From the IMG/VR virus record IMGVR_UViG_3300032213_002933: DNA of 64,000 bases. The stretch is one strand, 5' to 3'. The DNA is from an uncultured virus (IMG/VR IMGVR_UViG_3300032213_002933) (Duplodnaviria > Heunggongvirae > Uroviricota > Caudoviricetes). Made by a program: the position numbers and the translations under genes. Each line of letters begins with the position of its first letter. Position 1 is the first letter of the stretch. This document shows positions 6,849 to 62,436 of this stretch, piece after piece. A model generated the notes under the pieces. That model made no database searches, was not told the origin of the DNA, and saw only the letters and a list, made by a program, of their open reading frames with translations.

Positions 6849-6854
6849 ATAGAT

Positions 6855-6863: not shown

Positions 6864-6866
6864 TAA

Positions 6867-7536: not shown

Positions 7537-7592
7537 TTTTCTCCTAAAAGATAGTTACTATGTATATATAATAGCATGTTTTGAAAACTTAT

Positions 7593-7796: not shown

Positions 7797-7837
7797 TTTA
7801 ACTCCTTAAATATTCAAGATATCTAGGAGTATAGTAA

Positions 7838-8380: not shown

Positions 8381-8381
8381 A

Positions 8382-9101: not shown

Positions 9102-9124
9102 CTATTCTTATTGGATTCATTTTT

Positions 9125-9790: not shown

Positions 9791-9808
9791 TTTTTATCCT
9801 TTATTTTG

Positions 9809-9899
9809 CGGAGAGGGTGGGATTTGAACCCACGGGTACCTTTTCAGATACCGACATCTTAGCAGGATGTTCCATTCAACCGTACTCTGGCACCTCTCC
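9809..9899 (-). tRNA. tRNA-Ser (anticodon GCT), long variable arm, CCA not encoded
   Basis: Acceptor stem GGAGAGG/CCTCTCC with discriminator G; anticodon arm ACATC-CTGCTAA-GATGT; T arm GTGGG-TTCAAAT-CCCAC. Confidence 0.95.
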
Positions 9900-9907
9900 T
9901 AAATTAA

Positions 9908-10666: not shown

Positions 10667-10724
10667 ATATGCCTGTTTCAGTCTGGCTTGCGCATTAAAT
10701 TGCTCTAAACTATTATAACACAAA

Positions 10725-10763
10725 TGGTGGCGCAGTGCTCTCTAAAGTCACACCGCACCACCA
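10725..10763 (-). terminator. 13-bp GC-rich hairpin with G-U pairs (terminator or small RNA)
   Basis: TGGTGGTGCGGTG / CACTGCGCCACCA followed by TTTGTGTT. Confidence 0.5.
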
Positions 10764-10778
10764 CTTTATAATAGTAAT

Positions 10779-10988
10779 TTATTTATTAACTGTTTTTAAA
10801 ATTAAAAAGAATAATTTCTGTAGTTGTTCTTCGGTAGTGCTAAAAATCATTTCTTGATTATCTCCAAACGTCAATTTTATCACATGCCCCTTGATTAATC
10901 CACCCTCTGTTGTTATCATTGAAGTTGATGGAGTAATTTCTATATTCTTCATTGCTGGCATAAAACCAGCGAAGGTCATGTCATCCAT
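10779..10988 (-). CDS. Hypothetical protein
   Basis: ORF translationally coupled (TAATG) to the upstream peptide. Confidence 0.65.
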   Translation of the reverse strand: MDDMTFAGFMPAMKNIEITPSTSMITTEGGLIKGHVIKLTFGDNQEMIFSTTEEQLQKLFFLILKTVNK

Positions 10989-11149
10989 TATTTTTTCTTT
11001 TTTCTAGCTACCGCCATATTATCAATTAAATTTGGATAAGGTCGGCCAGCTGCCTTAGCTCGAGCTTTAGCTTTAGCTTTTAGTTTAGTTCCTAATTTTT
11101 TTGATTTCTTAATGGGAGATGGAGTATTCCAAATTTTTTTCTCTGCCAT
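10988..11149 (-). CDS. 53-aa Lys/Ala-rich basic peptide (not in the ORF track)
   Basis: MAEKKIWNTPSPIKKSKKLGTKLKAKAKARAKAAGRPYPNLIDNMAVARKKKK; TAATG overlaps at both ends. Confidence 0.8.
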   Translation of the reverse strand: MAEKKIWNTPSPIKKSKKLGTKLKAKAKARAKAAGRPYPNLIDNMAVARKKKK

Positions 11150-11265
11150 TACTTTTTTCTTTTCTTTAAATTTTTTTCATAATCATCTTTATAAAACTGA
11201 CCTTTGTTTTTTTTATCTTTTTCAATTTCTTTTTTAATTTTATCAGATGCTTTTTTCGCTGTCAT
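11149..11265 (-). CDS. 38-aa Lys-rich peptide (not in the ORF track)
   Basis: MTAKKASDKIKKEIEKDKKNKGQFYKDDYEKKFKEKKK; fills the gap exactly, TAATG coupling. Confidence 0.7.
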   Translation of the reverse strand: MTAKKASDKIKKEIEKDKKNKGQFYKDDYEKNLKKRKK

Positions 11266-21987: not shown

Positions 21988-22353
21988 TTACTCCTCGTAA
22001 ATACCTATTGGATTCCAATTTGGATTATCTAATTTTTCTCTCATATCTTTAACATAAGAATCCCAGTCTCGTTCATCTTCTGTTATTCTTTCATACTTCA
22101 CTTGACCTTTGAATGGATTTGTCTTAAACTTGGTAGTTATCAAGCGACCTTGCTGAGTCTTCCATCTAAGTACGCCATTTTTACAGTCGCAAAAATCATC
22201 ATTGTCTGCAGTAACTTTTAGATCAGGGTCATAGCGCCCACTGCAGCCATTACACTTTGTGTATCGCCCTTTATCCTGGCACCTATTGCAGGACGGACAA
22301 AAAACCCAACACCATTTATCGGTTGGGTTTACTGATGGGTTTACGTTAGGCAT
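21988..22353 (-). CDS. Cys-rich (Zn or Fe-S) hypothetical protein
   Basis: CWVFCPSCNRC...CNGC...CDC. Confidence 0.65.
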   Translation of the reverse strand: MPNVNPSVNPTDKWCWVFCPSCNRCQDKGRYTKCNGCSGRYDPDLKVTADNDDFCDCKNGVLRWKTQQGRLITTKFKTNPFKGQVKYERITEDERDWDSYVKDMREKLDNPNWNPIGIYEE

Positions 22354-25300: not shown

Positions 25301-25681
25301 CTTAACATAATACCCCTCAATAAAAGACCTAGAGGACATCTTAATTATATTATTGTATCCGGCGTTGTTCTTCGCTAAAATAGTTATGTGATAGGGGCCT
25401 CTTTGTTCCCACTCATTTTTAGCTGGACCTGATCTTTCTTCTTGATCTTTATCAAATCTACTTTTTCTAGCTTGATAAAATTCAGAACCTAAAATTGGCT
25501 TAACCCCAGTAGCTACTCCAGCGTCATAGAAATCTAACCATGAATGGATGTTTCCGTGATCGGTAGTCGCTAGCCCCTTCATCCCAAGGGACTGCGCTCT
25601 ATCCAGGTACTGTTCTATTCGACCATGACCATCTAACATAGAATAAACTGTATGGTTATGTAAGTTTGTCCAGTTTTTCAC
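22346..25681 (-). CDS. dnaE: DNA polymerase III alpha subunit (family C)
   Basis: PHP domain LHNHTVYSMLDG/TDHGN; GRGSAAGS; MPDIDLDF; HAAG; KIDFLGLRNL; YGFNRAHAASY; C-terminal OB fold. Confidence 0.97.
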   Translation of the reverse strand: MKNWTNLHNHTVYSMLDGHGRIEQYLDRAQSLGMKGLATTDHGNIHSWLDFYDAGVATGVKPILGSEFYQARKSRFDKDQEERSGPAKNEWEQRGPYHITILAKNNAGYNNIIKMSSRSFIEGYYVKPRVDHDLISEHSDGIIVLSGCLNGEVSQALLRDDFNYALASAKKMQDIVGKENYFIEIQDHGLSEQRKVFNQLIEIASIIGAKVVPSGDCHYVHQHDARAHDIMLCVATNANINTPNRFSFSGDEFYLQSYDDMERRFSSEWLRNTMDVCDMVDVNLNFGNIYFPNFPIPTSESSIDYFERLAWSGLKERYGDPLPQHIVDRALYEMRVVKDMGFPEYFLVVSDLVNWAKDNNIRVGWGRGSAAGSILSYAFKITNLDPIKFGLMFERFLVEGRKSMPDIDLDFDDRHRDEVIDYARSKYGSDHVAHICTFNRSGARQSIRDAARALGHDFTTGDSVAKLVPPPILGVSKSLSECMDVEDFNQLYNKDSTAKNIIDAAFGLEGLVRQTGIHAAGIVISREALTEYLPVMKKGADNPLVTQWDMGRVEQCGLLKIDFLGLRNLGIIDSCVKLVLKHRGIDVDIDSIPLDDSKTYDELCKGNCAGVFQLESSGMRQLMMQLQPRNVEDIMALISLYRPGPMGSGMDKEYIDRKHGRSNVKYEHEKLEKVLAPSLGIMLYQEDVLGVARELAGFTSAEADDLRKVIGKKLMDKIASIRSKFVEGCQKTSGLTASLANKIFSDIEYFGGYGFNRAHAASYAMISYVTAYLKANYTVEYMAALMSSVVGNKEKQSFYLADCRKLGINVLPPSVNYSGIDFEVDGDSAIVFGLSAVNGIGVSIADAIVNARDLNRPYTSIYDFFRRCDPSTLKKTTLEHLANAGAFDELFDYRDNLEINRIQEIQLLEKEKEELGMYVTDHPVNGIWDILSKKIDYEIIDLAEVANGTPVRVGGIVTDVKSIITKKGTKMYKILLEDISSDLEIVIFPNSAKQLGEDPFVKGDIFIMSGSVNRESDEEGSIVRLFYNSSEKIDSHVFSSGKALIFDVDKSISPLTIQKIYDIIESSKGDKPVFLQIKDGAHKFIYNFKNNTSEKVKSFIEEIIRMEKQNA

Positions 25682-30149: not shown

Positions 30150-30780
30150 TTTTAGAACCTTTTATTTTTCTGTATAGACTTTTTCTATACTCAGAGTTTT
30201 TCTTTTTTGCTTCGTTGTAGAATGGGTTGTCTGTAAGTGATTTTTTTTGCTTCTTATCAGAGATATAATCGCTGGATCTAATGGCCTCTAGCATTCTATT
30301 ATACACGCTGTCTTCAGTTAGGGAGTCATTATAGCGAAAAACTATTAGGGCAATACCATTATCTTTGCAGTATTGAACTTTCTTTTCATCTCTTTTTTGA
30401 GCTTCTTCAAACTCATATTTAGATTCAAAAAATCTACTAGTGTAAAAAAAATGTTGACGTCCGTGATATTCTGCCGCAAGCTTATAAGAAGGACAATAAA
30501 CGTCAAATCTTAATCTATCATCAATGTGATACTCATTTACTATTTCTTCACCTGGAAGAATCTTTTGCATGATCTGAGTTAGAGCTGTTTGACCTCTAGA
30601 CATTTTTTTTCTAGATTCTTTTAACCAAGATAAACCTAATTGATTTATTTTTTTGTTGACTTCATTAACTGAAACGTCTAACTGTCTAGCTATTGCACTA
30701 ATCGATGAATTTGTTTCTAGCAAGAGATCGATCAAAAACTGTACATCATCTTCTTCTAGTTTATTTTTTTTATCTTTCAT
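30124..30780 (-). CDS. HTH plus Vsr/DUF559-like endonuclease
   Basis: SISAIARQLDVS HTH; LRFDVY...AAEYHGRQHF...RDEKK..YC. Confidence 0.75.
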   Translation of the reverse strand: MKDKKNKLEEDDVQFLIDLLLETNSSISAIARQLDVSVNEVNKKINQLGLSWLKESRKKMSRGQTALTQIMQKILPGEEIVNEYHIDDRLRFDVYCPSYKLAAEYHGRQHFFYTSRFFESKYEFEEAQKRDEKKVQYCKDNGIALIVFRYNDSLTEDSVYNRMLEAIRSSDYISDKKQKKSLTDNPFYNEAKKKNSEYRKSLYRKIKGSKIDDNRRNL

Positions 30781-31418
30781 GCTACTGGCTGAGGATATGT
30801 AACCTTACTCAAACTAAGTGTTTTACCAAAATCTATGGTCGACATATTTAAGTTTTCCCATACCTTAGACATTAAGGCTAGCCCCAATACTCCACAGTCC
30901 ATAATGCAATAGTCGACTCCGCCTTCAAACTCTGCGAGTTGCGCATATATGTTATCAATCTTTTCATAATAATTAGTATATGCTACGTTGATAATATGAG
31001 TATTGTTTCCAAAGTGTTTTTGAATTATCTTCTTATCATGAAAAGTAATAACAACACTAGGAGTATTCTTAATGTAGTAATTAACTGTTGAATTATATAT
31101 CTCTTTATTATTCATGTAATAATACTCAAAGATATTAGAGTAGTAATACTCTCCGTTTTTATGAAGACCTATTTTGTAATGCTTACCATCTTCAATATCA
31201 GATACTAGCGAATGCGAGATTGCTTTCATTACATTTGGATCTGTATTTTTCAATGATGAGACTACGCTTTTTGCAAAATGACTTGGAAAAGAATTATCCG
31301 AGTTTTTACTTAGCGCAATTATTGCTGATTTTGGAACATTGATGTATGAAAATTTTTTCTTCTTTTCCATAGCAGATGTTACGTTGATGATGGACTGTGT
31401 TTGATTTAAAAATGTCAT
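30777..31418 (-). CDS. GT-D-fold (DUF1792-like) glycosyltransferase-like protein
   Basis: C-terminal CGVLGLAL...STIDFGK matches the GT-D C-terminal motif. Confidence 0.5.
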   Translation of the reverse strand: MTFLNQTQSIINVTSAMEKKKKFSYINVPKSAIIALSKNSDNSFPSHFAKSVVSSLKNTDPNVMKAISHSLVSDIEDGKHYKIGLHKNGEYYYSNIFEYYYMNNKEIYNSTVNYYIKNTPSVVITFHDKKIIQKHFGNNTHIINVAYTNYYEKIDNIYAQLAEFEGGVDYCIMDCGVLGLALMSKVWENLNMSTIDFGKTLSLSKVTYPQPVA

Positions 31419-31427
31419 ATTTTCCTA

Positions 31428-32120
31428 TTAAATTCCAAATGTTTCCCAGTCGATTAAGACTGGGTTAGTGTCCAATATTGAGTTGATATGGCTAAGATTA
31501 TGAAACTCTCCACCATCTATTTCTGTATATCTTTCATGCTTTATTTGCTTATCTTGATCTAAAATGTACCCTAGATGTTGCATTACCAGTTTAGAGTCTT
31601 TCCAAAAGTTACCTTGTCTCATCCAGTCAGCTACATAAGTAGGTTCTGAACCGCAAGCCAATTTTCTATTTGCAAATCCGCCACCCTCTAAAAATCTAAA
31701 AATTCTAGAACTATTATTTGGCGCCCAAAGCTTATCTACTCTATATTGATTTTCGTTCCACATATGATAAAATCTTACATTGACTACATCTTGTGGAGAT
31801 TGACCTAGTACTGTTCTAATGTCAATATTTTCTAAGTGAAAAAGCTTTTCATCACAGTCGATTGCAATGATCCAGTCACCTTTTTTGGCAAACTTTTCCA
31901 TATTACCCCAGGCGTATGCTCTAAGCTTAGCTTCGTGAACCTTAAATAGTGGCTCTGGCGACTGAAAAACTTCTGCGTACTTTGCTGCTATTTCAGGAGT
32001 ATTGTCAGTGGAGCAATCGTCTGTAAATATAATTTTATCAACTTGACTACTAAGTTTTTGAAGAACATCTTCTAAGAATCTAGAAGACTCATTGCGGCCT
32101 ATCATTTGTGCGTAAATCAT
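31428..32120 (-). CDS. Glycosyltransferase family 2
   Basis: GRNE, DDCSTDNT, WIIAIDCDE, HLGY. Start taken at MIYAQM, just after the terminator. Confidence 0.85.
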   Translation of the reverse strand: MIYAQMIGRNESSRFLEDVLQKLSSQVDKIIFTDDCSTDNTPEIAAKYAEVFQSPEPLFKVHEAKLRAYAWGNMEKFAKKGDWIIAIDCDEKLFHLENIDIRTVLGQSPQDVVNVRFYHMWNENQYRVDKLWAPNNSSRIFRFLEGGGFANRKLACGSEPTYVADWMRQGNFWKDSKLVMQHLGYILDQDKQIKHERYTEIDGGEFHNLSHINSILDTNPVLIDWETFGI

Positions 32121-32135
32121 TATTGTCCTAAGGGT

Positions 32136-32171
32136 AAAAAAGATTGAGGGGAGGATCTCTCCCCTCAATCT
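32136..32171 (-). terminator. Intrinsic terminator
   Basis: Perfect 13-bp stem AGATTGAGGGGAG/CTCCCCTCAATCT followed by T5 on the minus strand. Confidence 0.85.
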
Positions 32172-32197
32172 ATATTGAATAAGATACGAAGACTATA

Positions 32198-32392
32198 TCA
32201 GTTAACTAGTTGTTCGCGAGCTTCAATAGCAGAAATTCGCTCGATCTCTACATCGCTGCAGATGAGTTCTCCGGAAATACCAGAAGTACGACGACCGTTG
32301 CTCATTGCAATTTTTTGAGCTTCAGCCTTATTGTTTGCCTTGACTACTGATGTTGTTGTTACTGTGAAATACTTGAACTTATTTTCTGACAT
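32198..32392 (-). CDS. Hypothetical protein
   Basis: AAAGGA ribosome-binding site; within the operon. Confidence 0.65.
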   Translation of the reverse strand: MSENKFKYFTVTTTSVVKANNKAEAQKIAMSNGRRTSGISGELICSDVEIERISAIEAREQLVN

Positions 32393-32408
32393 TTTAGTCC
32401 TTTCTAGA

Positions 32409-32813
32409 CTAATTTGATGGATAATTGACTGCGATATATTCTATCGCATCTTGCATTGATGGTGCAAGCTTTGTTGCCATGTATTTTAGATAGACTCTAT
32501 TCTTATTGGAGTCACAGCAAAAAACTACTGCTGGTTGATTATTGAATTTAGCCCAAGCTAACTCAAAGTCAGTACCTATATACGCGCGATCTTGTAACAT
32601 ATATTCTACCAGAATGATATCTGCTCTGCGTTGCATGAACAAATTTTTCTCAACAATTTCTTCTGGTTCTTGATAGCCTACATCTACAATACTAGTTGGA
32701 TCCAATACGTCGTAGCCTGCAAGGTGTAATCCTTTTGTTGCGGACTTGCGCCAAAAGCGACCATACTCTTCAACGCCCTCAATTGCTCCGGAAAGAAATA
32801 CTTTTATAGCCAT
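32409..32813 (-). CDS. Nucleoside 2'-deoxyribosyltransferase / nucleotide N-glycosidase family
   Basis: VFLSGAI, WR, LDP, ADIILV, GTDFELAWA. Confidence 0.8.
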   Translation of the reverse strand: MAIKVFLSGAIEGVEEYGRFWRKSATKGLHLAGYDVLDPTSIVDVGYQEPEEIVEKNLFMQRRADIILVEYMLQDRAYIGTDFELAWAKFNNQPAVVFCCDSNKNRVYLKYMATKLAPSMQDAIEYIAVNYPSN

Positions 32814-33751
32814 TATATAATCTCCAATTCATCATCATCATAGTGTAAATTTTTATTCATAATATAATTGTCATATGGTATATTGTACAATTTTGTCAAT
32901 AGGCCTGAGTATAGTTTCTCACCACTGTCCACATCTATTCCCACAAGGTTGTGCCCATCAGATTTTTTTTTGGCTATTTCAAGCCATTCTTTTTCTCCAT
33001 ACTTATTTTGACCATTATACCATTTCTGATGACCACGCTCAACGCTATGCTTTATGTACATTCTAACTAAAAATTTATTACCATTTTTTACGGTGTTCAC
33101 CGAATGGAAGTAGGGTTCACCGCCAGGATAAAGTGGAGATCCAGATGGAAAAACAACTATTTCTCCTGCTTTTGGTTTATATGGAATTACCTTATCTTTT
33201 ACTAGGAATACAATTTCTCCACCGTCATAATTATCGTTTATGTATGTTGTAGCTGTAATTAAAAACTTTTCTCCTGGCCAATACCATTCCCCAATGCCAT
33301 AGTCTGTATGGTAATTCATTGACTTTTTTAGACCACTAGCTACATCTACACCTGCTTCATATCTAGCTATATTTTGATCTGTTATATATGAATCTTCTGG
33401 TAACTTTACATTATTTAATGCTATATAATGAGAGATGGCTGAAGTGACACCCTGATTTATGCGCATACTTAAAACTGCTTCATTAACAATGGTTTGAGAA
33501 TCGTAATCACTTTTTAAAGAAACTGTTTTTATAATATTTTTAATTGCAGAATCCGCGAATCTTGAATGACAATATTTTCCAAATATAAACCAATCTGTCC
33601 ATTTACTTAAAAATGATTCATCTAAAGAACTTTCTTCAGAGTCCTGCATTATGCCATGCAGATTTTCATGGTCAGGAAATAGATTATGATACACAAAAAT
33701 TTTTGGATATATTTCTGTATATTCTAAATTAATTGTATTAAAGTGTGTCAT
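32813..33751 (-). CDS. 2OG-Fe(II) oxygenase, P4H-like
   Basis: YHTD, YINDNYDGGEI, KPKAGEIVVFPS, FHSV..V..G.K. Confidence 0.85.
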   Translation of the reverse strand: MTHFNTINLEYTEIYPKIFVYHNLFPDHENLHGIMQDSEESSLDESFLSKWTDWFIFGKYCHSRFADSAIKNIIKTVSLKSDYDSQTIVNEAVLSMRINQGVTSAISHYIALNNVKLPEDSYITDQNIARYEAGVDVASGLKKSMNYHTDYGIGEWYWPGEKFLITATTYINDNYDGGEIVFLVKDKVIPYKPKAGEIVVFPSGSPLYPGGEPYFHSVNTVKNGNKFLVRMYIKHSVERGHQKWYNGQNKYGEKEWLEIAKKKSDGHNLVGIDVDSGEKLYSGLLTKLYNIPYDNYIMNKNLHYDDDELEII

Positions 33752-34158
33752 AATTTATTTGGCCAATAATATTCTAAATCATTTGGTTCATCAAAATATT
33801 GTGAATAATATCCAAAGTCTTTACGAAGAAGATTTGATCTATGAGATCTATGAAATTCTTCATTGCCAAACCAAAATGGCATAACTGCTGAGTTTGGTTC
33901 TATTTCTTCATAGGACATATTATTATTATATCCTCTACGAACCCATTCTCTTATGGTTATATTTTGATAAAGTTTTAAGGCGGATTCGTAACCGGTCCAC
34001 ATTAAAGTAACGGGATGGTTGCGCCATCCTTTGGTTTGAGTTCTATTTAATAGAACATTCAAAACTTGGAAACTTTCTACACGTTGTTTTCCAAGGCGAC
34101 GATAATCCAATACTTCTACAGACTTTTGAAAATCTGCATATGGTAGAAATGTTTGCAC
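33748..34158 (-). CDS. MSMEG_6728 / pyrimidine-dimer DNA glycosylase (endonuclease V)-like protein
   Basis: MQTFLPYADF...LD..RLGKQRVE, WRNHP...MW.GY, HRSHRSNLLRKD. Confidence 0.85.
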   Translation of the reverse strand: MQTFLPYADFQKSVEVLDYRRLGKQRVESFQVLNVLLNRTQTKGWRNHPVTLMWTGYESALKLYQNITIREWVRRGYNNNMSYEEIEPNSAVMPFWFGNEEFHRSHRSNLLRKDFGYYSQYFDEPNDLEYYWPNKL

Positions 34159-34159
34159 T

Positions 34160-34561
34160 TTAATCCTTTTTGAATTCGGTAAATGTTTTGTCGCCTACGC
34201 CAAAATATTCTCTAGCAAGACCAGATGCTATTATATCATCGTTTAGGCATTCTCCAACATTATTCCAAACTCTTCCAAGAATTCTGCCATACTTTTCATT
34301 CTTATCAAGGATTGTTTCAATCTTGATTTTATGACCAGCCTTGGTTAACCATTGGTCTGTAAATTCTTTAGCGGCTAAACCCATCTTTTTTTCTTCAAGA
34401 TTAGATGTTCTGCTTTCCGGCGTATTTACCCCATACAGCCTAATGCTTTTTGGGCCGAACTTAACTTCAAATCCCAAATCAACAACGACCTTAAGGGTAT
34501 CTCCGTCGACGACTTTGATGACTTCTGCATTGTAAAGGTACACATTAAATTTATCTGACAT
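34160..34561 (-). CDS. Thermonuclease (SNase-like)
   Basis: VVDGDT, IRLYGVNTPE, KYGRILG, LN...GLA. Confidence 0.9.
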   Translation of the reverse strand: MSDKFNVYLYNAEVIKVVDGDTLKVVVDLGFEVKFGPKSIRLYGVNTPESRTSNLEEKKMGLAAKEFTDQWLTKAGHKIKIETILDKNEKYGRILGRVWNNVGECLNDDIIASGLAREYFGVGDKTFTEFKKD

Positions 34562-34562
34562 A

Positions 34563-35354
34563 TTAATCTCTTTCTATTCCTATATAGTCGCACGCTTTGC
34601 GAAATATTGCTTGACTTTCTCTGAACTTAGAATCTGCTTCTCCACCAACTACGGAAGATTTATGCCAGCTATGACCAATGGAGACACTTCCATCATAAAC
34701 TACATTATACCCTAAGTGTCTTGCAAAGTATGAACACCAGGTCTCTTCGTAGTAATGAGGAGTGGGTAGGAATGCTCCAATTGCACCGGGATACATTTCT
34801 TGATACTTCGGATGACTTGTCAGCGCATTCCATACTTCTCTTCGTATAAAATATGCTGAACCTGAAACCGTTACACAATTGACTCTATCTCTATGTAGTG
34901 AGTCCTGAAGATCAAGTTCATGCCAACCGCGATGCTTAGGAGCGGTATTTGTACCGACAATTCCAGCATGCGTTATGTGTCCGCTTTCATTTCTTTGCTT
35001 CGGACCCAAGATATGAATGTCTGGATTTTCATCAAATATATTCTGGATTTCAACTAGACTAGAAGTGCTCATCCATACATCTGCATTTAATAAACAGATT
35101 ATATCTGCCGATCCTTTTGCAGCTAATTGATTACATGCTGCTGAGTAACCAATATTGCGATTATGATAAAATTCTTTAATTTTGTAACGTTGATAATTAT
35201 ACTTTAGCCATTCAACGCTATCATCTTGAGAGTCATTGTCTGCTATATAAAGGTTCCACACTTTAGGATTCTTGTGCGCATCGTTGTGCAAGCAATCTAG
35301 AAATCTATTTAGAAGTGGTCTTGTATTATAGTTAACTATACATAGATCTATCAA
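34563..35354 (-). CDS. Glycosyltransferase family 2 (WbbL/rhamnosyltransferase-like)
   Basis: IVNYN, DNDSQD, NIGYSAACN, LLNAD, VSGSAYFIRR, YYEET. Confidence 0.88.
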   Translation of the reverse strand: MIDLCIVNYNTRPLLNRFLDCLHNDAHKNPKVWNLYIADNDSQDDSVEWLKYNYQRYKIKEFYHNRNIGYSAACNQLAAKGSADIICLLNADVWMSTSSLVEIQNIFDENPDIHILGPKQRNESGHITHAGIVGTNTAPKHRGWHELDLQDSLHRDRVNCVTVSGSAYFIRREVWNALTSHPKYQEMYPGAIGAFLPTPHYYEETWCSYFARHLGYNVVYDGSVSIGHSWHKSSVVGGEADSKFRESQAIFRKACDYIGIERD

Positions 35355-50241: not shown

Positions 50242-53016
50242 TTAGTTCCAGTCTTCTCCGCTCATATCCTGGAGGTCAAATACAACTCCAGCTGTAAGGT
50301 TATTTTGAATTATACTATATATTTCTTTTTCATTAATAAAATTATCTTTGACTTCTTCTGGTATTCTGATTATAACATATCCACCCCTACTATAGGCGTC
50401 TCCTTGCGCAGGATATGTATCCCAATAGGAAAGTATTTCATCTATATTTTCAACGATTTCTGAGTTTTGGATAGATGCCTTTACTCCGCCACCTCTTAAC
50501 CTTAAGTCTGACAATTCTGGATTTTCTCTATTGGGATTATTTGTTGCATAGATAATGGCTATCATTAAAGCAAATGGATCATAGTTGATGGAAAGTATGT
50601 CAAAAATTGTTGGATCATAAGTAAAGTTTATACTCTGCGCATAATCATGATCTAATACTTCTGTATATTGAACTGGCTGTGAATTCGCATTGCTATATGT
50701 TTTCTTGTATATGTTTTTTGGAGTTATATATATAAAAAGTGGTTTGTCAAACTCAATAACGTCTGCATTTAATAGGGGGTTTAAGGGAATGGGATTTCCA
50801 TCTACTTGCCTTAATAAAAGATTTTTATTTTCGGTTGTATAAGAGACCTTGATAAGAGAATTGCTTGACGGCACTAATGGACGCTTAAAAGTAATCACGC
50901 CGGTATAGGAGTTTATATCTTTAATTAATCGATATGGTATTTCAGCCCATTCACTATTTGCTGTTTCCTTTGTAAATACTTTAATTTCACTTTTAATTAG
51001 TCCAGCTATGGATGATGCATAACTTGTAGGGTGATTCCAGTTTAATATTGGAGTTCTTTTTACTTTTATATTTTTGCTATCTAATATTATAGGATATTCA
51101 TCTGTGACATCATAGTAGCCATGACCATATATTTTTGACCAAGAAATATTTTGCTGATCCAATGTACTGTATTGCGCCAGTAAGGACTGACCTTTATAGT
51201 CTTTCTTCCAGTCAAACCACTGATTCTTTTCGGAAATATATATTTCTTTTGAAAAAGCGCCGGGCGACACGGGCAGTTCCCATGAGTCAAATTTAGATAG
51301 ATTTGGACTTATTTCATTAACTTTAATTGAGCTTGAAGAATTATATTTTACAGAATATACTGGAACCAGATACTTTAACGGGACTCTACTTGGTATAAAT
51401 GTACTAGAATTATTAAGACCAAAAAACTCATTGTCACCAGGTTTTCCATCAGCATCTAATGCACATATTCCAATAAATATATTTTCAACATTTCTGCTTA
51501 AAGAATTTTCTGACCTTGAATAAAAGTCAACATAATTTAAATAATTTCCTAAGAATTCTTTTTTCTCTATATCATAAAATCCATACTTGATGCCATCGTC
51601 TGGAAATTCACTAGTAATTGAAAAGTATCCATACTGCAGGTCCCTTTCTTGAAGATCTATTGTATTTTGTAATGACATATCCTCGATGGCGGATCTTATT
51701 TGAGCAATAGTTGGAATTCCTATTGGCTTACCTTCTCCATTACAGAAGAGCAAGACTCCATCCCCATAGTTTATGGTATTTTTATCGATTGCAGATAACA
51801 TAGTTCCTGACACTGTTCTCATTCGATTGGCGGACAAATCAATTGAACTTGTTGCCACTATTGAATCACCATAATATGTTGCCGATGTTTCAACCTTAAG
51901 TATGTTGTTATTGTTGGAAACGGAAACTGGGGTGCCTTCCAATATGTCTTGACCTGCAGATGTAACATTCTCCAAAGATATATTAGACAATACGATAGGC
52001 TGATCTGTGTCAATGTTAGAAAATGAATTAACTCTTATGTCATTATTTTCGTAACCAGTTGTATTCAATGTCTTTGCATCGCCGGAAGTAAAAGTAATAG
52101 ATGTATTGACTCCTTCTACTTTTGAGGGATATTCAATTTTAGAAATATAATGATTACCGTTCCTCAATGAAGTCAAAGATTTAAGATTATCTAGACTATT
52201 CAGTGCCACTAACTTTGATGTGCTTGGGGAGATATTTTCAACGGCACCGGATATTGAAACACTAACGGTAATTGGCAGAGGGGAATAAACAGTATCAGTT
52301 CGCGGAACTGTCAAGGGTCCAGGTTGAACTATTCCATCTACGTCTATCCTTGCAATGGAGAAGCCTTCAGCCTCTCCAAAGCCAGGTATCTTACTGCCGA
52401 TAAGAGTAATGCACATATATTTTGCGTCCGATATACTTCTGCCATTCATCGGAATTGTTACAGTACCAGATTGTGCTGATAAATCTAATAATTCAGCCCC
52501 ACCAAATTTTAAAAGATCAGTCTGGTAAGTGGACGACCAATAAATAGTAATTACTTTAAATTGTCTCCATTTAGGATCTGAATCCGCTGTAATAATAATA
52601 TTGTTTATCTTTAATATATCATCTGGTATTTCAAAGAAAATATAATCTAATGCTATAGAGGGACCTACTGTTCCACTAAAACTTAACTTTTTATACGATT
52701 TATTAGAATTAATTGACGAAGTAGTTCCTATATTTTCTACGGCGATAATGTACTTTCTTATATCCTCCGAAGCAAAATCCTTCCAGCCTTGAAATAGTTC
52801 TGGAGTTGATGACTTCATATTCAACCAGAATTTAGCCAAGTACCATTTAGTTTCGCTATCTACTTTGCCATCAATAAATCTTTGATTATTATTTGTTTGA
52901 AAGACCTTAACAGAGGCTTTTGTATTTGGACCATATAGCCCATCTATAGCCTTAGAATAATATCCATTAGCTGCTAATGTATACTGTATATATTTTACGT
53001 ATTCATGTGATGACAT
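50242..53016 (-). CDS. Virion/baseplate protein with N-terminal peptidoglycan-binding domain
   Basis: VKYIQYTL...IDGLYGPNTKASVKVFQ...IDGKVDSET; C-terminal DLRLRGGG. Confidence 0.7.
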   Translation of the reverse strand: MSSHEYVKYIQYTLAANGYYSKAIDGLYGPNTKASVKVFQTNNNQRFIDGKVDSETKWYLAKFWLNMKSSTPELFQGWKDFASEDIRKYIIAVENIGTTSSINSNKSYKKLSFSGTVGPSIALDYIFFEIPDDILKINNIIITADSDPKWRQFKVITIYWSSTYQTDLLKFGGAELLDLSAQSGTVTIPMNGRSISDAKYMCITLIGSKIPGFGEAEGFSIARIDVDGIVQPGPLTVPRTDTVYSPLPITVSVSISGAVENISPSTSKLVALNSLDNLKSLTSLRNGNHYISKIEYPSKVEGVNTSITFTSGDAKTLNTTGYENNDIRVNSFSNIDTDQPIVLSNISLENVTSAGQDILEGTPVSVSNNNNILKVETSATYYGDSIVATSSIDLSANRMRTVSGTMLSAIDKNTINYGDGVLLFCNGEGKPIGIPTIAQIRSAIEDMSLQNTIDLQERDLQYGYFSITSEFPDDGIKYGFYDIEKKEFLGNYLNYVDFYSRSENSLSRNVENIFIGICALDADGKPGDNEFFGLNNSSTFIPSRVPLKYLVPVYSVKYNSSSSIKVNEISPNLSKFDSWELPVSPGAFSKEIYISEKNQWFDWKKDYKGQSLLAQYSTLDQQNISWSKIYGHGYYDVTDEYPIILDSKNIKVKRTPILNWNHPTSYASSIAGLIKSEIKVFTKETANSEWAEIPYRLIKDINSYTGVITFKRPLVPSSNSLIKVSYTTENKNLLLRQVDGNPIPLNPLLNADVIEFDKPLFIYITPKNIYKKTYSNANSQPVQYTEVLDHDYAQSINFTYDPTIFDILSINYDPFALMIAIIYATNNPNRENPELSDLRLRGGGVKASIQNSEIVENIDEILSYWDTYPAQGDAYSRGGYVIIRIPEEVKDNFINEKEIYSIIQNNLTAGVVFDLQDMSGEDWN

Positions 53017-56000: not shown

Positions 56001-56182
56001 GACGTTTCTTTAATTTTATTTTCTATAATTAGTTCTGAAACATCTGTAATAAATACATTTTTTGCTGGACTAATTGATTCTGAAGTAAACCAAGATATAC
56101 CCGCAGCGTGCAATGGAACCTTGGTCCCTATCTTTGTTGCTTTTTCCTTGCCAGAAGTAGTTAAATTGTCAAATATTTCCAT
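53045..56182 (-). CDS. Large virion structural protein
   Basis: 1045-aa ORF, TAATG-coupled to the upstream baseplate gene. Confidence 0.65.
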   Translation of the reverse strand: MEIFDNLTTSGKEKATKIGTKVPLHAAGISWFTSESISPAKNVFITDVSELIIENKIKETSSSEIMYADELGILRRLNGSSSIATQNITISNSFVHKKTVSEMLDLNEVNPDSFSHYFYVSRYFAIAPSSISLISLDDYISDDIIISLGIKVLDEFGKDYINPITNKRKYKILLEPFRTENNTSLPEIPYRILVFLDPQEPINLKLMYNKVESDELGNIFGFQLRYAETINPVKYFKELPEESFVIDPNYYGSKNFSIKKIDQKYTNINLNNQPIENGYQVIVPSKAIKDYRTYEVFNWRIIGRIKRNLNFNQVYYGVESDISSGNFSRTVKAAVICTDSSSANTNPYAIYRLENSPFNLTRLKFTNPLAQNGITKNQANYWKMNIDTISISDMGQYDVLVWSPDAAITPDQAAKINYFTANKFGTVILDLSLCPDASKLNAGTQLVMSNPVAANTVDMIDNNYLIDSTKNGGWSLLDNIFEKDYYGIFGSRLINGDTTLPKTYKYFSNLANNNIFLKAGPTTSSQYPIGAIIPASTNVDTLSKGNVIATTFNLLAYCNSVYDLAYSEKVINYNNDSSHYGSIENDNNVFSAIVEGPFKLFFNAVSYGIYCKSQSLRDVTVASSLINFVTDWDSSWVMYSDALEDSEKTLFEIVSLSPSESVYARNLTTDISSNTSSIFTYLKTKMSEKLPDFQRNLLAELSVEDITFYIEATNPDVAFKDADVIDNPDTTENIPSSYSLHKVVASNAPNAPLLAYTKKYSPSLQRLSGLGPHLLVERPTGTSSTRNLNSLIGFSSGFNSYPFKLSSKFTSFEGIDLPYGFDCNLSLTATVAINGESKNLITWYELENQAQRPDIVGTENWQSAIDDLNLQRSTNVSESTNVFPYTGDIDIHGITAIWQQTVDGGGDGEDEDVIDWAAIAAYIASLPPDTTIVPPVVPITDSTTSKPDSINILPSRAITPGTNPAIITFTRWKSGSILTGSGLAAYSYFIIYKLANQGEFGRYNIEFFFYNTSSSLVKTLYNQTQTQLYGLGLGSLPARFISYNP

Positions 56183-59100
56183 TATTCTTCCTCATGGTCT
56201 GGGTGCAGTTGCGAGTAGTCAGATATATAGTACGGAGTAGATCCCATCAATCCCATTTGATATTGATCATATCTATTTAATGGGACCCACTTAGGGGGCA
56301 GCCAGTTGGGCGTAGAGTTATATGGGTAAATAACCTCTGCATTGGAGTGCTCATAGGCAAAGCTGGGAGTTGCGAGTATTTGTGAGCCTTCTTGCCTATT
56401 TATTGTATATATATTTGGTAAGGGTATATTATTTTCATAGCTATACTGAATAGAGTCATATGACTCGTACCAGTAGACAACATCTCCAGATATAGTAACG
56501 TCATTAGATAAAGGAACTTCTCCACTAGAAGTTAAGATAGATGCAATGGCTTCTTCATTGGAGATATTTACCCGAGCAAACCAATATCCCGGCGTACTTG
56601 AGTCACTAGCTGTGATTTCGTTAGATATAGTAAATTCTCCATTTGAATTAGTATTTATCACATGATCTGGTGTAGCTGCAAACAAGTCTTTTAATGTCCT
56701 GCCGACATTCCAGGAAAGCTGGACTTCGTTATTAAATGGTTTATTCTTCCAGTAAATTTTTCCAGATATTGATATCTTACTGATGCCGTCTGCATTTATA
56801 TTAATGTCTGATGCAGCTGCTTTAACTGACAAATGAAATGGGTCATTTCTACTTATTTCGAATGGCACCTTTAGGCTATAACCTTCAGAGGAACTATTTT
56901 CTCCACCATTTGGAGTAGCAGATCCTATTCCAATGATATCAATTACTCCCTCACGATATACTGCTGGTATATCGCCATTGTATCTAATGATGGATGTTGC
57001 TAATCCATTATCGCTTGTTGTTATAAACGATGGCGTAGCTGAAATTAAATCACCAGAAATAGCAAATGTTTGACCTGGCTTTAGATTATATTGATTATCG
57101 TGAGATACCAAAGATAAATACATTAAATCTGAAGTAGAGTCAGAGATGTATGCTGGTGATAAATGAGCTTCAACATGCGAAAATGGATAATCTTCTTTAC
57201 TGACATATATGTATCCTTCATCTATCGGATTTAAGGATGAATTCAGATATAAATCAATTGGATATGTAATGTCGTTAATTGAATTTTCATAAGTAATATT
57301 ATATGAAGAATTTGAGTTTGGAGTTGAGCTGAAATAAATTACTGAATTATATGCGTCAGCAATAGGGTCATAAACGTCATTATCCAGATACCATGCATTA
57401 TTTACCTTATATGAAACTAGGTATTCTCTATCGTATATGAATGGTGTGGCTGCACTTTGGGGTGTAGCTTCATTGGTCAGTGTAATTTGATTTTCGCTTA
57501 CAAGTATAGTATCTAATACTTCTTTGCCAGTATAATTATCTAAGACTGATACATTAGTTATGTCTTTATACGCTAAATAAATTATTTCATTTGCGCTGGC
57601 ATTAACTATTTCAGAGTTTTCAAAAGTTAATTTTCCAGGAGTAGCGGCGTCTTCAAATGCCATATTTCTATAGTTCTGACCATCAACATCAACAAGTACG
57701 GGGGCGCCATTCCTAGGCGTATTTAAAAGGTTGACACTGAAGAATCTTCCACTAGAAGATTCCGTAACTGGATTTGCATATATGTAATAATCATTTTCGT
57801 CTAGATATATCCAGCCCGTATGTAGTGCTGATCGTTGTTCTTGAATTAAAAACTTATCCTTTTTAGCGTGTATGTCTACGGACGTTTCTATGTCTTGACT
57901 GAATGAGGAATTTAAATTATTTAAAAGCGCATCTTGAGATTCGACGTATGCTAAAACTGAATCTTGTGCAGTATTTAATGTAGCGTCCTTTATAATATAT
58001 ACATCATCTTGAAGAAGACCAAAAGAGTCTTTACTTAAATAAATTTTACTCAAAAAGGAATCAGCATTGAAATAGGAATTTAGGGGATCTTCGCCCGTCT
58101 CATATACATTATCTAACGAATCTATATATCCACTAAAGAGATTTGGAGTTGCCTCCGCCGTGAATGATTCGTACGCGTTAAAGTATATAGGATAATAACT
58201 TGATGTAGCTGATTCAATTAGTATGTAGTGCGGTGTTGACGCATAGTTTATTGTTGCAGAATCGAAATAATCAGCTGCCCCAATAGACGCGTTCGAAGAA
58301 TTAAAAGGCTGCCATAATATGTTTGGTGATGATGGTATTAGGTACTGGGAATTGTCATCTGGATTAGTGGTTCTTCCGCCAATAATATTTCTTTCCATAT
58401 CTTCTGACCCAAAGTATCCCACCCCATTTGGAGCGCTAACGTCCACATAAAGATATCGAGGCGTTGCGTCAAATGGTAAAATTACTCTATCTAACATCTC
58501 ATTAACGTAGATAGATTCTGTTAAAATTCCTGAAACAGTAGGGTCATTTTGGGAATTTAAGACAACTGTAGATTGTAATGGGCTCGTGTTTAAAGATACT
58601 ACTTTTGTTGCGTAGTTTGTAGATCCAATTTTTATGTTTGCATCTTGTGGGCGCCTATTAGGAGTGGTCATTGATGTATAGGAGTTTGCAGCGGGGTTAG
58701 TATAATAGGTTGGACTAGCAGTGGAAAATGAAGCCCAATAACTTGCCGTAGCGAGAGAAGTGTCATATGCTTGAGAAGCATAATTCCATCCCCCGTTGGA
58801 AAAAGTTATTTTAACAGAGGATGCGTCATAAAAATTAATATTATTACTTGTCGGAGTTGCTTGAGTATTTAGGTAGATCTGATTATATACCTTATCTCTA
58901 AATACTATATCAGGAATTGTATTACCTTCCTGGTCAAATATTCTAATATAGTTAAATTCAGGACTAGCAGAACTTGTAGCTGGAAATCTATTTCCAACAT
59001 AAAAATCATCTCTATTGCTATAGTTTAAGTTTGAATAGAATGTAGAAGGAGTAGCATAGTTATCATGTGGCGGCATTATTATTTCATATGTCAGCCCTAC

Positions 59101-60804
59101 TCCAACATCTTGAACTACTCCAGATTTTCTTCTGCCCGCATTATAATCCTGAACAGTCCTTAGGTAATTAACATACCATGAATAGTCTACAAGGATTGGT
59201 GTGTAGGCGTACTCTATTCCGGTCTTGTGCACTCCAGATATAGACATTGACCCATTGAATGATATAGTGGATTTCTCTAATGATTCTAGAATGAATCTTC
59301 CGTCAGAAAAATCTCCAATACCTGGCTGATAATATTCCGATAGGGGAGATGTGTCCGTGTCATATATAGCGGGTATTCTAGAGACACCTTCTCCATCCAT
59401 CCCAGAGTAATCCCAGGTTCCCTCACCCCATTTAACGTATCCTATATTAGATGGATATCTATTATTTAAGTCTTCTACTAGATCTTTGAACATTTTTTCT
59501 GGCTTACCAGAAGGGGAAAAATACGGTGTTGTTTTTTCTAAGTCTGAAATTTCATAAATATACGGAAAAGCTTGAGTACTGTCAGAGTCTACATCTACGC
59601 CATAAGCTTTCCATATGTCCAATTCTCTTCTTAGTGTTCTCTTTAGTCCGTCGCTATGGATTCCTGGAATATTCTTAGATACATCTAATATTCTTTGCTT
59701 GTATCTAGAGTTAGTTTCTTTATATAGTCTCTCTAGGCCTACTCTTGCGCCAAATTCATCAAAGTTATTAAATATATTAACTGCATATTGCTCGTAAGGA
59801 GTTCCGTTTACGGAAAGTGTTACGTATTCTCTCATGACAAGAATCTGTTTATCCATTGGGTTATAATAATAAACATGATCTGTTATTTTACTTCTGTGAA
59901 AATCTGATAAAGAATTTACAGGCGAAAGGATAACGTCATCACCTACTATGGTCTGCAGATTTGTTGGAACATCATAGGACACGTAAGCCCACGCAAGCAT
60001 ATTTTCATCGGCACTATTGATATAAGCATTGATGTCTCTTAGGTCAATCTCTGAAACAATCGCATCTATGTTTTCTTGGACTAATGCTGTTAAAAATTTT
60101 CCACCCGTAGATTGCGGAATAGCTAAAGAAGGGGTGGCAGGCTCTAGTGAGTCATCAAATAATTTTGTCCACGTTGGAAATCTTCTTAGGATATTCCTTG
60201 CTGAATTTGATATTACTGGAGACGTGGGTTCGTGTATGCCTATTTCCAAATAGAATAGCAATCCGAGCGTCGATACATCTATATTTTCAGAGAATATTTC
60301 AAGTTCTATTTTTATCCATGGCTTAGCGTTCCTGATGAATATAATATTAGAATCAAACGATAACGAAGACTTTAGCCATGGACCATCTTCCATATCGGAC
60401 TCATGCATCTGAATGTTAAAGGATGGTACTTCAAATCCTGGTAAGTTTGTAAAGGTATGCTTATAGGCTAGAATATCTATTCTTGAGCTAGTATCCAAGA
60501 AGCGTATTAAGTCAGGTGTGGCTGGCTCATAAACTATTTCACCGGCGTTAGTTACATACAGTGCGTTTGGACTAAGGGGGGTTGACATATCATTGGAATA
60601 TGATGGCGAGGTGACCTCTGTGCCCACGTAAGTGTTATCGCCAATTAAATTAAGGCCATAACGAGATCTAGTATATGAGTAATTATTGTACTGGCTATTG
60701 CTATATAGGTTTACGGCACTGCTTGTCCATAGCGGATTTCCCGTTAAAGCGTCATATGTTTTAGTGAAATCTCCACTTTTAAAAAGTAACAAGTACTGCT
60801 TCAT
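56182..60804 (-). CDS. Giant baseplate wedge-type protein (1540 aa) with dispersed ATP/STP tripeptides
   Basis: FDEFGARVGLER..ETNSRYKQRIL wedge-like motif; directly follows baseplate J. Confidence 0.7.
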   Translation of the reverse strand: MKQYLLLFKSGDFTKTYDALTGNPLWTSSAVNLYSNSQYNNYSYTRSRYGLNLIGDNTYVGTEVTSPSYSNDMSTPLSPNALYVTNAGEIVYEPATPDLIRFLDTSSRIDILAYKHTFTNLPGFEVPSFNIQMHESDMEDGPWLKSSLSFDSNIIFIRNAKPWIKIELEIFSENIDVSTLGLLFYLEIGIHEPTSPVISNSARNILRRFPTWTKLFDDSLEPATPSLAIPQSTGGKFLTALVQENIDAIVSEIDLRDINAYINSADENMLAWAYVSYDVPTNLQTIVGDDVILSPVNSLSDFHRSKITDHVYYYNPMDKQILVMREYVTLSVNGTPYEQYAVNIFNNFDEFGARVGLERLYKETNSRYKQRILDVSKNIPGIHSDGLKRTLRRELDIWKAYGVDVDSDSTQAFPYIYEISDLEKTTPYFSPSGKPEKMFKDLVEDLNNRYPSNIGYVKWGEGTWDYSGMDGEGVSRIPAIYDTDTSPLSEYYQPGIGDFSDGRFILESLEKSTISFNGSMSISGVHKTGIEYAYTPILVDYSWYVNYLRTVQDYNAGRRKSGVVQDVGVGLTYEIIMPPHDNYATPSTFYSNLNYSNRDDFYVGNRFPATSSASPEFNYIRIFDQEGNTIPDIVFRDKVYNQIYLNTQATPTSNNINFYDASSVKITFSNGGWNYASQAYDTSLATASYWASFSTASPTYYTNPAANSYTSMTTPNRRPQDANIKIGSTNYATKVVSLNTSPLQSTVVLNSQNDPTVSGILTESIYVNEMLDRVILPFDATPRYLYVDVSAPNGVGYFGSEDMERNIIGGRTTNPDDNSQYLIPSSPNILWQPFNSSNASIGAADYFDSATINYASTPHYILIESATSSYYPIYFNAYESFTAEATPNLFSGYIDSLDNVYETGEDPLNSYFNADSFLSKIYLSKDSFGLLQDDVYIIKDATLNTAQDSVLAYVESQDALLNNLNSSFSQDIETSVDIHAKKDKFLIQEQRSALHTGWIYLDENDYYIYANPVTESSSGRFFSVNLLNTPRNGAPVLVDVDGQNYRNMAFEDAATPGKLTFENSEIVNASANEIIYLAYKDITNVSVLDNYTGKEVLDTILVSENQITLTNEATPQSAATPFIYDREYLVSYKVNNAWYLDNDVYDPIADAYNSVIYFSSTPNSNSSYNITYENSINDITYPIDLYLNSSLNPIDEGYIYVSKEDYPFSHVEAHLSPAYISDSTSDLMYLSLVSHDNQYNLKPGQTFAISGDLISATPSFITTSDNGLATSIIRYNGDIPAVYREGVIDIIGIGSATPNGGENSSSEGYSLKVPFEISRNDPFHLSVKAAASDININADGISKISISGKIYWKNKPFNNEVQLSWNVGRTLKDLFAATPDHVINTNSNGEFTISNEITASDSSTPGYWFARVNISNEEAIASILTSSGEVPLSNDVTISGDVVYWYESYDSIQYSYENNIPLPNIYTINRQEGSQILATPSFAYEHSNAEVIYPYNSTPNWLPPKWVPLNRYDQYQMGLMGSTPYYISDYSQLHPDHEEE

Positions 60805-62055: not shown

Positions 62056-62436
62056 TTAATCTCCTAGATTTTGACTTACTGATAACATGATGGGTTCGTC
62101 TATATCGGATACTATGTGGATATCAAATTTAATAGTATCCCTACTGGTTGGAACGGCGGTAATCTTAATGTTGCGCCCCTTGAAAAGGCCTTCTTTTTGA
62201 AGCCCAGCCATAATGAGAGCTTTGCCAAACTCTGCTGTTTCTTTTGTCTGTGGCAGTCCATAGAGTCTAGATAGGTCTATTCCAAGCTGTGGATATATGT
62301 AAAAATCCCCAGGCTCCGTCATTAGTCTTAGGTAGATTTGCTGGATATCTTCATGCAAAGAAGATGGAGCCAATCCGAGATCCCTTTTTCCATCGATAAC
62401 AAAATCTCCATCTAAGGTAAAATATAGGTCACTCAT
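62056..62436 (-). CDS. gp25-like baseplate wedge / sheath initiator
   Basis: DL.....GD, QQIYLRLMTEPGD...P.LG.DL. Confidence 0.75.
   Translation of the reverse strand: MSDLYFTLDGDFVIDGKRDLGLAPSSLHEDIQQIYLRLMTEPGDFYIYPQLGIDLSRLYGLPQTKETAEFGKALIMAGLQKEGLFKGRNIKITAVPTSRDTIKFDIHIVSDIDEPIMLSVSQNLGD

Follow-up and report, generated by a model that had tools for sequence, protein, structure and literature searches.

We analysed a 64,000-nucleotide stretch of DNA (hereafter the window) from an uncultured virus of the Caudoviricetes (IMG/VR record IMGVR_UViG_3300032213_002933), focusing on a tripeptide, [Ala/Ser]-Thr-Pro, that recurs throughout one very large protein. The open reading frame (ORF) at positions 56182-60804 on the minus strand encodes this 1540-amino-acid (aa) protein, P0001, which contains 13 Ala-Thr-Pro (ATP) and six Ser-Thr-Pro (STP) tripeptides, referred to below as tags. 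The genes of its putative baseplate module that bear on its identity are as follows.

56182..60804, minus strand: ORF of the tagged baseplate-module protein P0001, 1540 aa
60883..62052, minus strand: Baseplate_J (gp6-like wedge) gene, directly upstream (PF04865, E 5e-9; phrog_6 baseplate wedge subunit, E 2e-34)
62056-62436: gp25-like ORF, preceding the Baseplate_J gene and the tagged gene

The tagged gene lies directly downstream of Baseplate_J, the order expected for a wedge or arm protein in the gp7/gpI position. Residues ~195-530 are distantly similar to ORF162 of Bacillus phage 0305phi8-36, annotated as a virion protein, and to virion proteins of other large phages. We therefore read P0001 as a baseplate-arm or fibre-like protein, its baseplate role being suggested by gene order and weak homology.

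The ATP tripeptides start at residues 95, 223, 584, 649, 780, 885, 1054, 1113, 1119, 1256, 1296, 1377 and 1478, and the STP tripeptides at residues 74, 856, 1160, 1403, 1497 and 1522. From the composition of the protein, 0.35 ATP would be expected against the 13 observed (Poisson P = 1.3e-16), and 0.68 STP against the six observed (P = 8e-5). No more than five ATP appeared in any of 20,000 shuffles of the sequence, and the 19 copies of the combined motif compare with an average of 1.03, and at most six, in 20,000 shuffles. Ala or Ser precedes 19 of the 24 Thr-Pro dipeptides (binomial P = 6e-11), and when all tripeptides of the protein were compared, ATP was by far the most over-represented. 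The tags are isolated, with spacings of 6 to 361 residues. Their coding sequences differ at all three codons and all nine nucleotide positions, indicating selection on the protein and not on a DNA motif. Neither ATP nor STP occurs in the adjoining 1045-aa protein, the 924-aa protein of the window has no ATP and one STP, and no other window ORF of at least 80 aa contains more than one ATP. The [Ala/Ser]-Thr-Pro enrichment is real and selected at the protein level. A preliminary description of this DNA had counted the same 13 ATP, in exactly the contexts found here, and the same six STP, and had reported varied codons, fewer than one ATP expected by chance and none in the 1045-aa and 924-aa proteins; each of these observations was borne out, as was the enrichment in the comparison with shuffled sequence that it had proposed.

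We analysed the conservation of the tag across homologs of P0001. A word-indexed search listed 120 homologs (95-35% identity), and an exhaustive search with residues 341-1540 gave 198 representatives, 150 of them among the matches listed; the family counts given here cover 193 full-length members of at least 1200 aa. These contain a median of 17 tags (range 0-26) against an expected median of 1.0, and the distribution is bimodal, with at least nine copies in 182 of the 193, three to eight in five and 0-2 in six. Within 92 related loci (80 + 5 + 7) fetched with protein alignments, only the tagged protein was enriched, and its giant neighbours (1000-2100 aa) held 0-2 copies. The same restriction was seen in a related record of 193,906 bases (92% complete, 217 ORFs of at least 100 aa), where the tagged protein alone was enriched (19 copies vs. 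0.93 expected, P = 8e-19) and all other ORFs jointly held 34 copies vs. 29 expected. A 260-aa ORF at G002:C1:32411-33193 has three tags (0.18 expected, P = 8e-4), non-significant after 217 tests. Distant cultured relatives and short homologs carry 0-1 tags. A tblastn search of GenBank phages with the tag-less alignment returned only distant Bacillus and Moorella phages, scans of viral, metagenome and genome contig sets with that alignment yielded nothing beyond tagged relatives and a 2.8-kb fragment, and full-text literature searches found no description of an [Ala/Ser]-Thr-Pro tag.

Positions of the tag are partly shared between homologs. There are 23 columns of the family profile in which 20% or more of the 193 sequences carry the tag, and several of these are almost invariant. 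Thr occupies the column of residue 224 in 166 of 189 sequences and that of residue 413 in 161 of 191; at the latter the window protein reads AFP, having lost the site. Members of the distant clade (<30% identity) use only 4-9 of the 23 shared columns yet carry 10-24 tags, so many of their sites must be clade-specific. A tree was built from 91 of these 193 sequences, taking the representatives of 50% clusters and adding 16 sequences of the first search. On it the tag is found in 164 columns and requires 397 parsimony gains, compared with 44-126 gains for nine control tripeptides; alignment error inflates these gain counts for tag and controls alike. The preliminary description had proposed checking whether homologs keep the motif density at shifting positions, and had inferred that the sites were independently selected. 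Density is indeed kept and selection acts at the protein level, whereas positions shift only partly and full independence is not supported, ~23 sites being position-conserved.

The grammar of the tag is strict. Where Thr-Pro is present at the 23 shared sites (n = 2339), the residue at -1 is Ala in 1463 cases, Ser in 645, Thr in 164 and any other residue in 67. Thr is the commonest residue at its own position, with Ser accounting for under a third of its replacements. The conservation of Thr and Pro reaches 2.46 and 2.69 bits, compared with 1.7-2.1 for the flanks and a mean of 2.04 over all columns. The two clades differ at -1: Ser contributes 0.31-0.39 of the Ala-plus-Ser total in clade I, the near clade, and 0.14 in clade II, the distant one, and Thr-Thr-Pro forms 10% and 3%, respectively, of their Thr-Pro dipeptides. 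This difference could reflect a shift in reader specificity or background composition. Insertions and deletions around tags gave a borderline signal (deletion frequency 0.080 vs. 0.056; 5% of random site sets were as high).

We utilized AlphaFold2 to predict the structure of P0001 in two parts from a 50-sequence alignment: residues 1-850 (predicted local distance difference test score, pLDDT, 79.9) and residues 831-1540 (pLDDT 78.6). The models are mostly beta, with low confidence at residues 451-527 and over the last ~90 residues. The protein is laid out as an N-terminal beta-sandwich, a conserved core, immunoglobulin (Ig) domains and a conserved C-terminal tail. Tandem invasin/intimin-like Ig domains lie at ~1195-1400, and homologs have a Big_1/Invasin_D3 Ig-like domain at the position of residues ~1195-1290. 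The model of the C-terminal half matches the tandem Ig domains D0-D1 of intimin (Foldseek E 2e-9). The N-terminal half had no Foldseek match at E 0.001 or better, and its VIA-align Z of ~8 to phage-tail beta-sandwich domains is within the usual range for unrelated chains. Sequence searches of the PDB with the tagged protein gave nothing, or marginal invasin and coat-protein matches, and the ESM Atlas offered no named neighbour. Homologs carry accessory modules (Lcl-C/DUF1566, FG-GAP, CBM) inserted at two or three hot spots. Among homologs P0004-P0096, modules of 170-1100 aa (PF07603, PF14312, PF02018, PF17164) occupy shared hot spots in different lineages; the insertion points, at ~560 and 945 of the family profile, look like modular exchange of binding domains.

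Mapping the sites onto these models, as the preliminary description had suggested, placed the individual tags of P0001 as follows (all on the minus strand).

60577..60585: STP 74-76, coil in the model; Thr in 96/121 aligned sequences
60514..60522: ATP 95-97, coil, with a strand four residues on; Thr in 106/114 aligned sequences
60130..60138: ATP 223-225, a short helix beginning at Pro, just after Thr; Thr in 166/189
59047..59055: ATP 584-586, coil, with a strand directly after
58852..58860: ATP 649-651, coil
58459..58467: ATP 780-782, a strand opened by Thr and Pro
58231..58239: STP 856-858, coil
58144..58152: ATP 885-887, long coil
57637..57645: ATP 1054-1056, inter-strand loop; Thr in 146/185 aligned sequences
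57442..57468: two ATP, 1113-1115 and 1119-1121, in the same long loop; block pLDDT 53
57319..57327: STP 1160-1162, inter-strand loop; Thr in 88/88 near homologs
57031..57039: ATP 1256-1258, within the Ig-like domain (Big_1 in homologs), at the end of a short strand
56911..56919: ATP 1296-1298, Gly/Ser/Asn-rich linker after the Ig-like domain
56668..56676: ATP 1377-1379, coil, with a helix before and a strand after
56590..56598: STP 1403-1405, coil, with a strand two residues on
56233..56373: C-terminal tail with ATP 1478, STP 1497 and STP 1522; pLDDT <50; columns conserved in the family

In the models, the tag Thr falls in coil at 17 of 19 sites, compared with 48 of 88 other Thr residues; five of the tags lie within low-confidence segments. 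A helix or strand follows the tags after 0 to 31 residues, and within four residues for 10 of the 19. The contexts are mixed: one tag is at a helix start, about half lie 0-4 residues before a strand, and the rest are in long loops, the linker or the tail. No internal repeats were found by hhalign between 120-aa family segments (probability at most 8.6%; for pairs with starts from residue 481 onwards, one side was sampled at 80-residue intervals), and the best self-alignments were seven-residue matches of the tags themselves. We therefore rejected the tag as the marker of a structural repeat, and the contexts are non-repetitive, as first described.

Six full-length homologs with 0-2 tags (P0150, P0157, P0159, P0186, P0202 and P0206) provided a view of how the tag is lost. 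These proteins align over 0.82-0.92 of the profile and are 23-27% identical to P0001, like the tagged members of clade II. In the tree, P0186 groups with the tagged P0178 and P0180, while a grade formed by the other five also takes in the tagged P0146, P0149, P0176 and P0210. This nesting of tag-less proteins among tagged ones indicates that the tag was lost en bloc at least twice. At 12 sites conserved in the clade, the six tag-less proteins have Thr in 6 of 66 cells, which is background, Pro in 32 of 66 and Ala or Ser in 32 of 66; at the same sites, the counts for the 14 tagged clade II proteins, out of 155 cells, are 123 for Thr, 128 for Pro and 131 for Ala or Ser (cell totals summed by hand). 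Almost any residue (E, V, Y, H, K, L) can stand in place of the tag Thr, and the tag-less proteins show enrichment of no substitute tripeptide. Loss of the tag en bloc, with a decay specific to Thr, suggests that a reader acts on this residue. Because relatives keep the tag while a few lose all copies together, something probably reads the Thr, and we consider it likely that some trans-acting factor recognizes the tag.

We next turned to phage-encoded enzymes that might act as this reader. In the window there are three genes of the family-2 glycosyltransferase (GT2) domain PF00535, one GT-D-like gene and one TOD1-like gene. The three candidates of most interest are listed here.

34563..35354, minus strand: GT2-A, soluble GT2 enzyme of 263 aa (PF00535, E 9e-15); candidate enzyme
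31428..32168, minus strand: GT2-B, soluble GT2 enzyme of 246 aa (PF00535 and PF13704); putative priming enzyme
30777..31418, minus strand: GT-D-like protein of 213 aa adjoining GT2-B (PF22882, 34.9 bits vs. a cut-off of 27)

The survey covered 15 IMG/VR records that encode tagged homologs, of which six are at least 90% complete. Any GT2 (PF00535) was present in 14 of 15 records and in all six complete ones. Orthologs of GT2-A were found in 14 of 15 (6/6 complete, 55-82% identity) and orthologs of GT2-B in 13 of 15 (6/6 complete, 55-76% identity), and the records lacking one or the other are either fragmentary or carry the gene pair at the edge of a contig. Across genomes where these two enzymes reach 55-82% identity, the baseplate protein falls to ~25-31%. 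The GT-D-like neighbour of GT2-B was detected by sequence in 11 of 15 records (5/6 complete) and by the Pfam model in two of 15; in the clade II record G016, a third GT2 replaces it. We rejected three candidates as universal partners of the tag: the GT2 at 1039-1836 (3/15 records, 2/6 complete), the TOD1-like gene (4/15, 2/6 complete) and the GT-D-like gene as defined by the Pfam model (2/15). Co-occurrence of the tag with particular glycosyltransferases and oxygenases was a check proposed in the preliminary description; it holds for GT2-A and GT2-B in all six complete records and fails for the oxygenases related to prolyl 4-hydroxylase (P4H), which occur in four of the six.

The best solved relative of GT2-B is the glycosyltransferase domain of GmaR (E 3.9e-7 with a single sequence; E 1.8e-9 with a four-sequence profile, the next match being at 8e-5). 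The cluster of GT2-A, GT2-B and a variable third glycosyltransferase lies at 30777-35354 in the window, at 8082-11212 in locus L176 and at 6787-10112 in locus L177. SNase and pyrimidine-dimer glycosylase genes interrupt it in the window and in G006, and in the window it is also interrupted by a 2-oxoglutarate (2OG) oxygenase gene and a deoxyribosyltransferase-like gene.

We propose that [Ala/Ser]-Thr-Pro may be a short recognition tag, present in ~20 copies in predicted surface loops of one baseplate-arm protein, with threonine as its functional centre and a cytoplasmic O-glycosyltransferase as its likeliest reader. GT2-B, which is GmaR-like, or GT2-A would add the first sugar to Thr, recognizing a small residue at -1, Pro at +1 and an exposed loop, during or after folding, and the remaining transferases would extend the glycan. 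Such glycans might aid the folding, solubility, stability or protection of the very large core, rather than forming a general virion coat. We infer all three elements of this proposal: the existence of a modification, its nature as a sugar and these transferases as its makers. O-glycosylation of a Thr-directed tag by the conserved phage GT2 enzymes is our leading candidate, although we hold it tentatively. The fuller proposition, a dedicated sequon-directed cytoplasmic O-glycosylation system acting on ~20 loops of a single baseplate-arm protein in a large family of uncultured aquatic phages of ~150-240 kb, is more doubtful, and we have the same reservations about two conserved soluble GT-A enzymes and a lineage-variable third transferase building the Thr glycan in such a system.

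Several observations weigh against this proposal. The tag appears to belong to the conserved core, as would be expected of a structural element: 11 tags, with 8.5 expected, were counted over the 11,681 aa of accessory domains from 32 proteins of clade I (totals summed by hand), compared with a core density of ~11 per 1000 aa, and it is this background level together with the restriction to a single protein that suggests the tie to the core. About 23 sites are position-conserved, and a weak extended logo surrounds them (Gly or Ser at -2, Asn, Ser, Asp or Glu at +2, hydrophobic residues at +3 and +4). The tag Pro lies in coil at 17 of 19 sites, similar to other Pro residues (56/67). The tree on which the tag-less proteins are placed is a midpoint-rooted FastTree tree, its support values not printed. 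As for the enzymes, the GmaR match covers ~110 residues in the nucleotide-binding half, GT2-B is without a tetratricopeptide repeat (TPR) or other substrate-binding domain (Pfam: PF00535 and PF13704 only), and GT2-A resembles generic polysaccharide and lipid-carrier GT-A enzymes. In the window, G006 and G016, the three genomes inspected, both genes occupy the interval from ThyX/dCMP deaminase to DnaB helicase, a replication-module position that would suit a DNA or host-envelope substrate. However, ThyA-type hydroxymethylases and TET/JBP are the known routes to a glycosylated-DNA acceptor, and we found the former in none of the 15 tagged records and the latter above cut-off in none of them. The link between transferases and tag is one of co-presence, and many core genes are equally universal. 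The preliminary description had gone further and pictured a glycan-shielded baseplate. That phrase is too broad, judging from the distribution of the tag, which does not have the look of a general virion coat: it is enriched in one of the 217 ORFs of the 194-kb relative, the giant neighbours hold 0-2 copies and swapped-in accessory domains are at background.

The alternative that fares best is that a small residue followed by Thr-Pro is simply a favoured start of a strand or helix after a loop, which helps a 1500-residue beta-rich protein to fold and needs no reader. We regard this as rather unlikely. Conservation of ~23 columns down to 25% identity is consistent with it, but the tag has been invented at 164 columns, three to nine times more often than control tripeptides, and distant cultured relatives and short homologs hold 0-1 copies. 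Its placement also fits in part, with 17 of 19 tags in coil, 10 of 19 within four residues of a strand or helix and T224/P225 at a helix start, yet the contexts are heterogeneous (0-31 residues to the next element), and the strict Ala, Ser or Thr at -1 has no known structural reason. The weak flanking logo and the accessory domains without the tag are likewise in its favour. The tag-less proteins cut both ways. About half of the sites retain Pro and the small residue, as a structural role would allow, whereas Thr is lost en bloc in at least two nested lineages that retain the fold, including the Ig-like domain, and almost any residue takes its place, implying no local need for the Thr hydroxyl.

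It is also possible, though unlikely, that the tag has a different reader: a host kinase, glycosyltransferase or other enzyme, a chaperone or prolyl isomerase, of phage or host, that works as the protein folds, or a partner protein docking on the loops, with tag loss following a host switch or loss of the partner. Block loss and repeated invention of the tag fit any reader equally, the glycosyltransferase link being co-presence and the genes lying in the replication module, and a single tagged protein would suit a dedicated partner or chaperone. No candidate partner with ~20 repeated modules was identified, however, and a three-residue docking site inside folded loops would be unusual. Among enzymes, a proline-directed kinase deserves mention. 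Eukaryotic proline-directed phosphorylation sites are [Ser/Thr]-Pro, and the tag resembles them in placing a hydroxyl residue before Pro in loops. It differs in that Hanks-type kinases (PF00069) occur in none of the 15 tagged phage records (a count covering the phage records), in that Thr is strongly preferred over Ser, and in that the residues replacing Thr have no acidic bias (13% Asp plus Glu vs. 12% at control Thr columns). These three observations, including the lack of a phosphomimetic replacement signal, speak against proline-directed phosphorylation.

A further alternative, put forward in the preliminary description, is that P4H-like 2OG-Fe(II) oxygenases hydroxylate the tag Pro, which is then glycosylated as in plants. 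Plant and algal hydroxyproline-O-glycosylation glycomodules consist of AP/TP/SP, and the tag shares Thr-Pro and Ser-Pro dipeptides with them; the window has three P4H-family (PF13640) genes (5378-6142, 6117-6848 and 32813-33751), and PF13640 occurs in 12 of the 15 tagged records, in up to nine copies. It is not universal, though, being absent from G015 and from two of the six tagged genomes that are at least 90% complete: G006 (100% complete with terminal repeats, 19 tags) and G016 (22 tags). Upon tag loss Pro stays and Thr decays, so it is Thr and not Pro that depends on a reader, and the tags are isolated tripeptides in folded loops, unlike clustered X-Pro modules. The oxygenases also have a simpler substrate at hand in the collagen-like protein at 1-984, beside a GT2. 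We consider the hydroxylation route very unlikely. That neighbouring gene (1-984, minus strand, running off the window) encodes a collagen-repeat protein (PF01391, E 3e-28), adjoins the GT2 at 1039-1836 and is near two of the P4H-like genes (5378-6848); hydroxylating and glycosylating Pro/Lys of a collagen-like protein would ask less of these enzymes than acting on the baseplate tag. PF13640 forms arrays of six to nine copies in some relatives (e.g., G009:C1:185691-197977) and is absent from others; the records with arrays are G004, G005, G008, G009, G011, G012 and G013, indicating a strongly expanding and contracting paralog family.

Finally, an origin of the enrichment in composition, codon usage or a DNA-level motif can be counted as refuted: nothing was found in its support, shuffles reach at most five to six copies in 20,000 trials, codons vary at all nine positions, adjoining genes of the same composition hold 0-1 copies, and the tag is kept in proteins down to 25% identity.

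O-glycosylation of the tag by the phage's own transferases, if correct, would have relatives among known systems. In GmaR of Listeria monocytogenes, a cytoplasmic GT-A enzyme transfers O-linked N-acetylglucosamine onto flagellin (PMC9638930). GmaR is the closest solved relative of GT2-B and, as proposed for GT2-B, is soluble and modifies Ser/Thr of one dedicated structural protein before assembly; it differs in having TPR and anti-repressor domains, whereas GT2-B consists of the catalytic domain only and is similar over ~110 residues. We know of no sequon of the [Ala/Ser]-Thr-Pro kind in flagellin. Priming of serine-rich-repeat adhesins is done by the GtfA/GtfB pair. The GT-D enzyme DUF1792 has been characterized in O-glycan extension on one such adhesin, Fap1 (PMC5063993). 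On Fap1-type adhesins, a glycan is assembled step by step in the cytoplasm by several soluble glycosyltransferases (GT-A and GT-D) that serve a single adhesin-like protein; GT2-A, GT2-B and the GT-D-like gene of the window are a potential counterpart set. Those adhesins present long, low-complexity Ser-rich repeats, in contrast to the isolated tags in loops of folded domains described here.

Mycobacteriophage virion glycans are located at the C-termini of capsid and tail-tube subunits (Freeman et al. 2023, as cited in PMC12619734). The systems are alike in that a tailed phage has its own soluble glycosyltransferases and a virion structural protein is the proposed cytoplasmic acceptor. They differ in that our phages carry ~20 dispersed, strict-grammar tripeptides in one baseplate protein as putative glycan sites, and in that capsid and other proteins are not tag-enriched in the 194-kb relative.

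Cytoplasmic O-glycosylation of bacteria and their viruses has almost no defined sequons; sites are therefore hard to predict and enzymes hard to pair with substrates. If [Ala/Ser]-Thr-Pro is a sequon, it would offer a rule of three residues, a single dedicated substrate, a small set of candidate enzymes and lineages that have lost the tag, and it could be tested in E. coli by co-expression, with no need for phage culture. It would be the first defined linear O-glycosylation sequon for a virus of bacteria, the tag-less lineages would form a natural knock-out series, and a function would be suggested for glycosyltransferase genes that are core to widespread large aquatic phages. Should the tag prove purely structural, it would still illustrate, with unusual sharpness, the repeated invention of a single tripeptide in one fold.

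Two further genes of the window were noted. The 924-aa baseplate-module protein (50242-53016) has an N-terminal peptidoglycan-binding domain (PF01471, E 1e-11) and is possibly tail-associated, cell-wall-binding or lytic. The product of the ORF at 22346-25681 is a full DNA polymerase III alpha subunit of the bacterial type, comprising PHP, polymerase, finger, HhH and OB domains.

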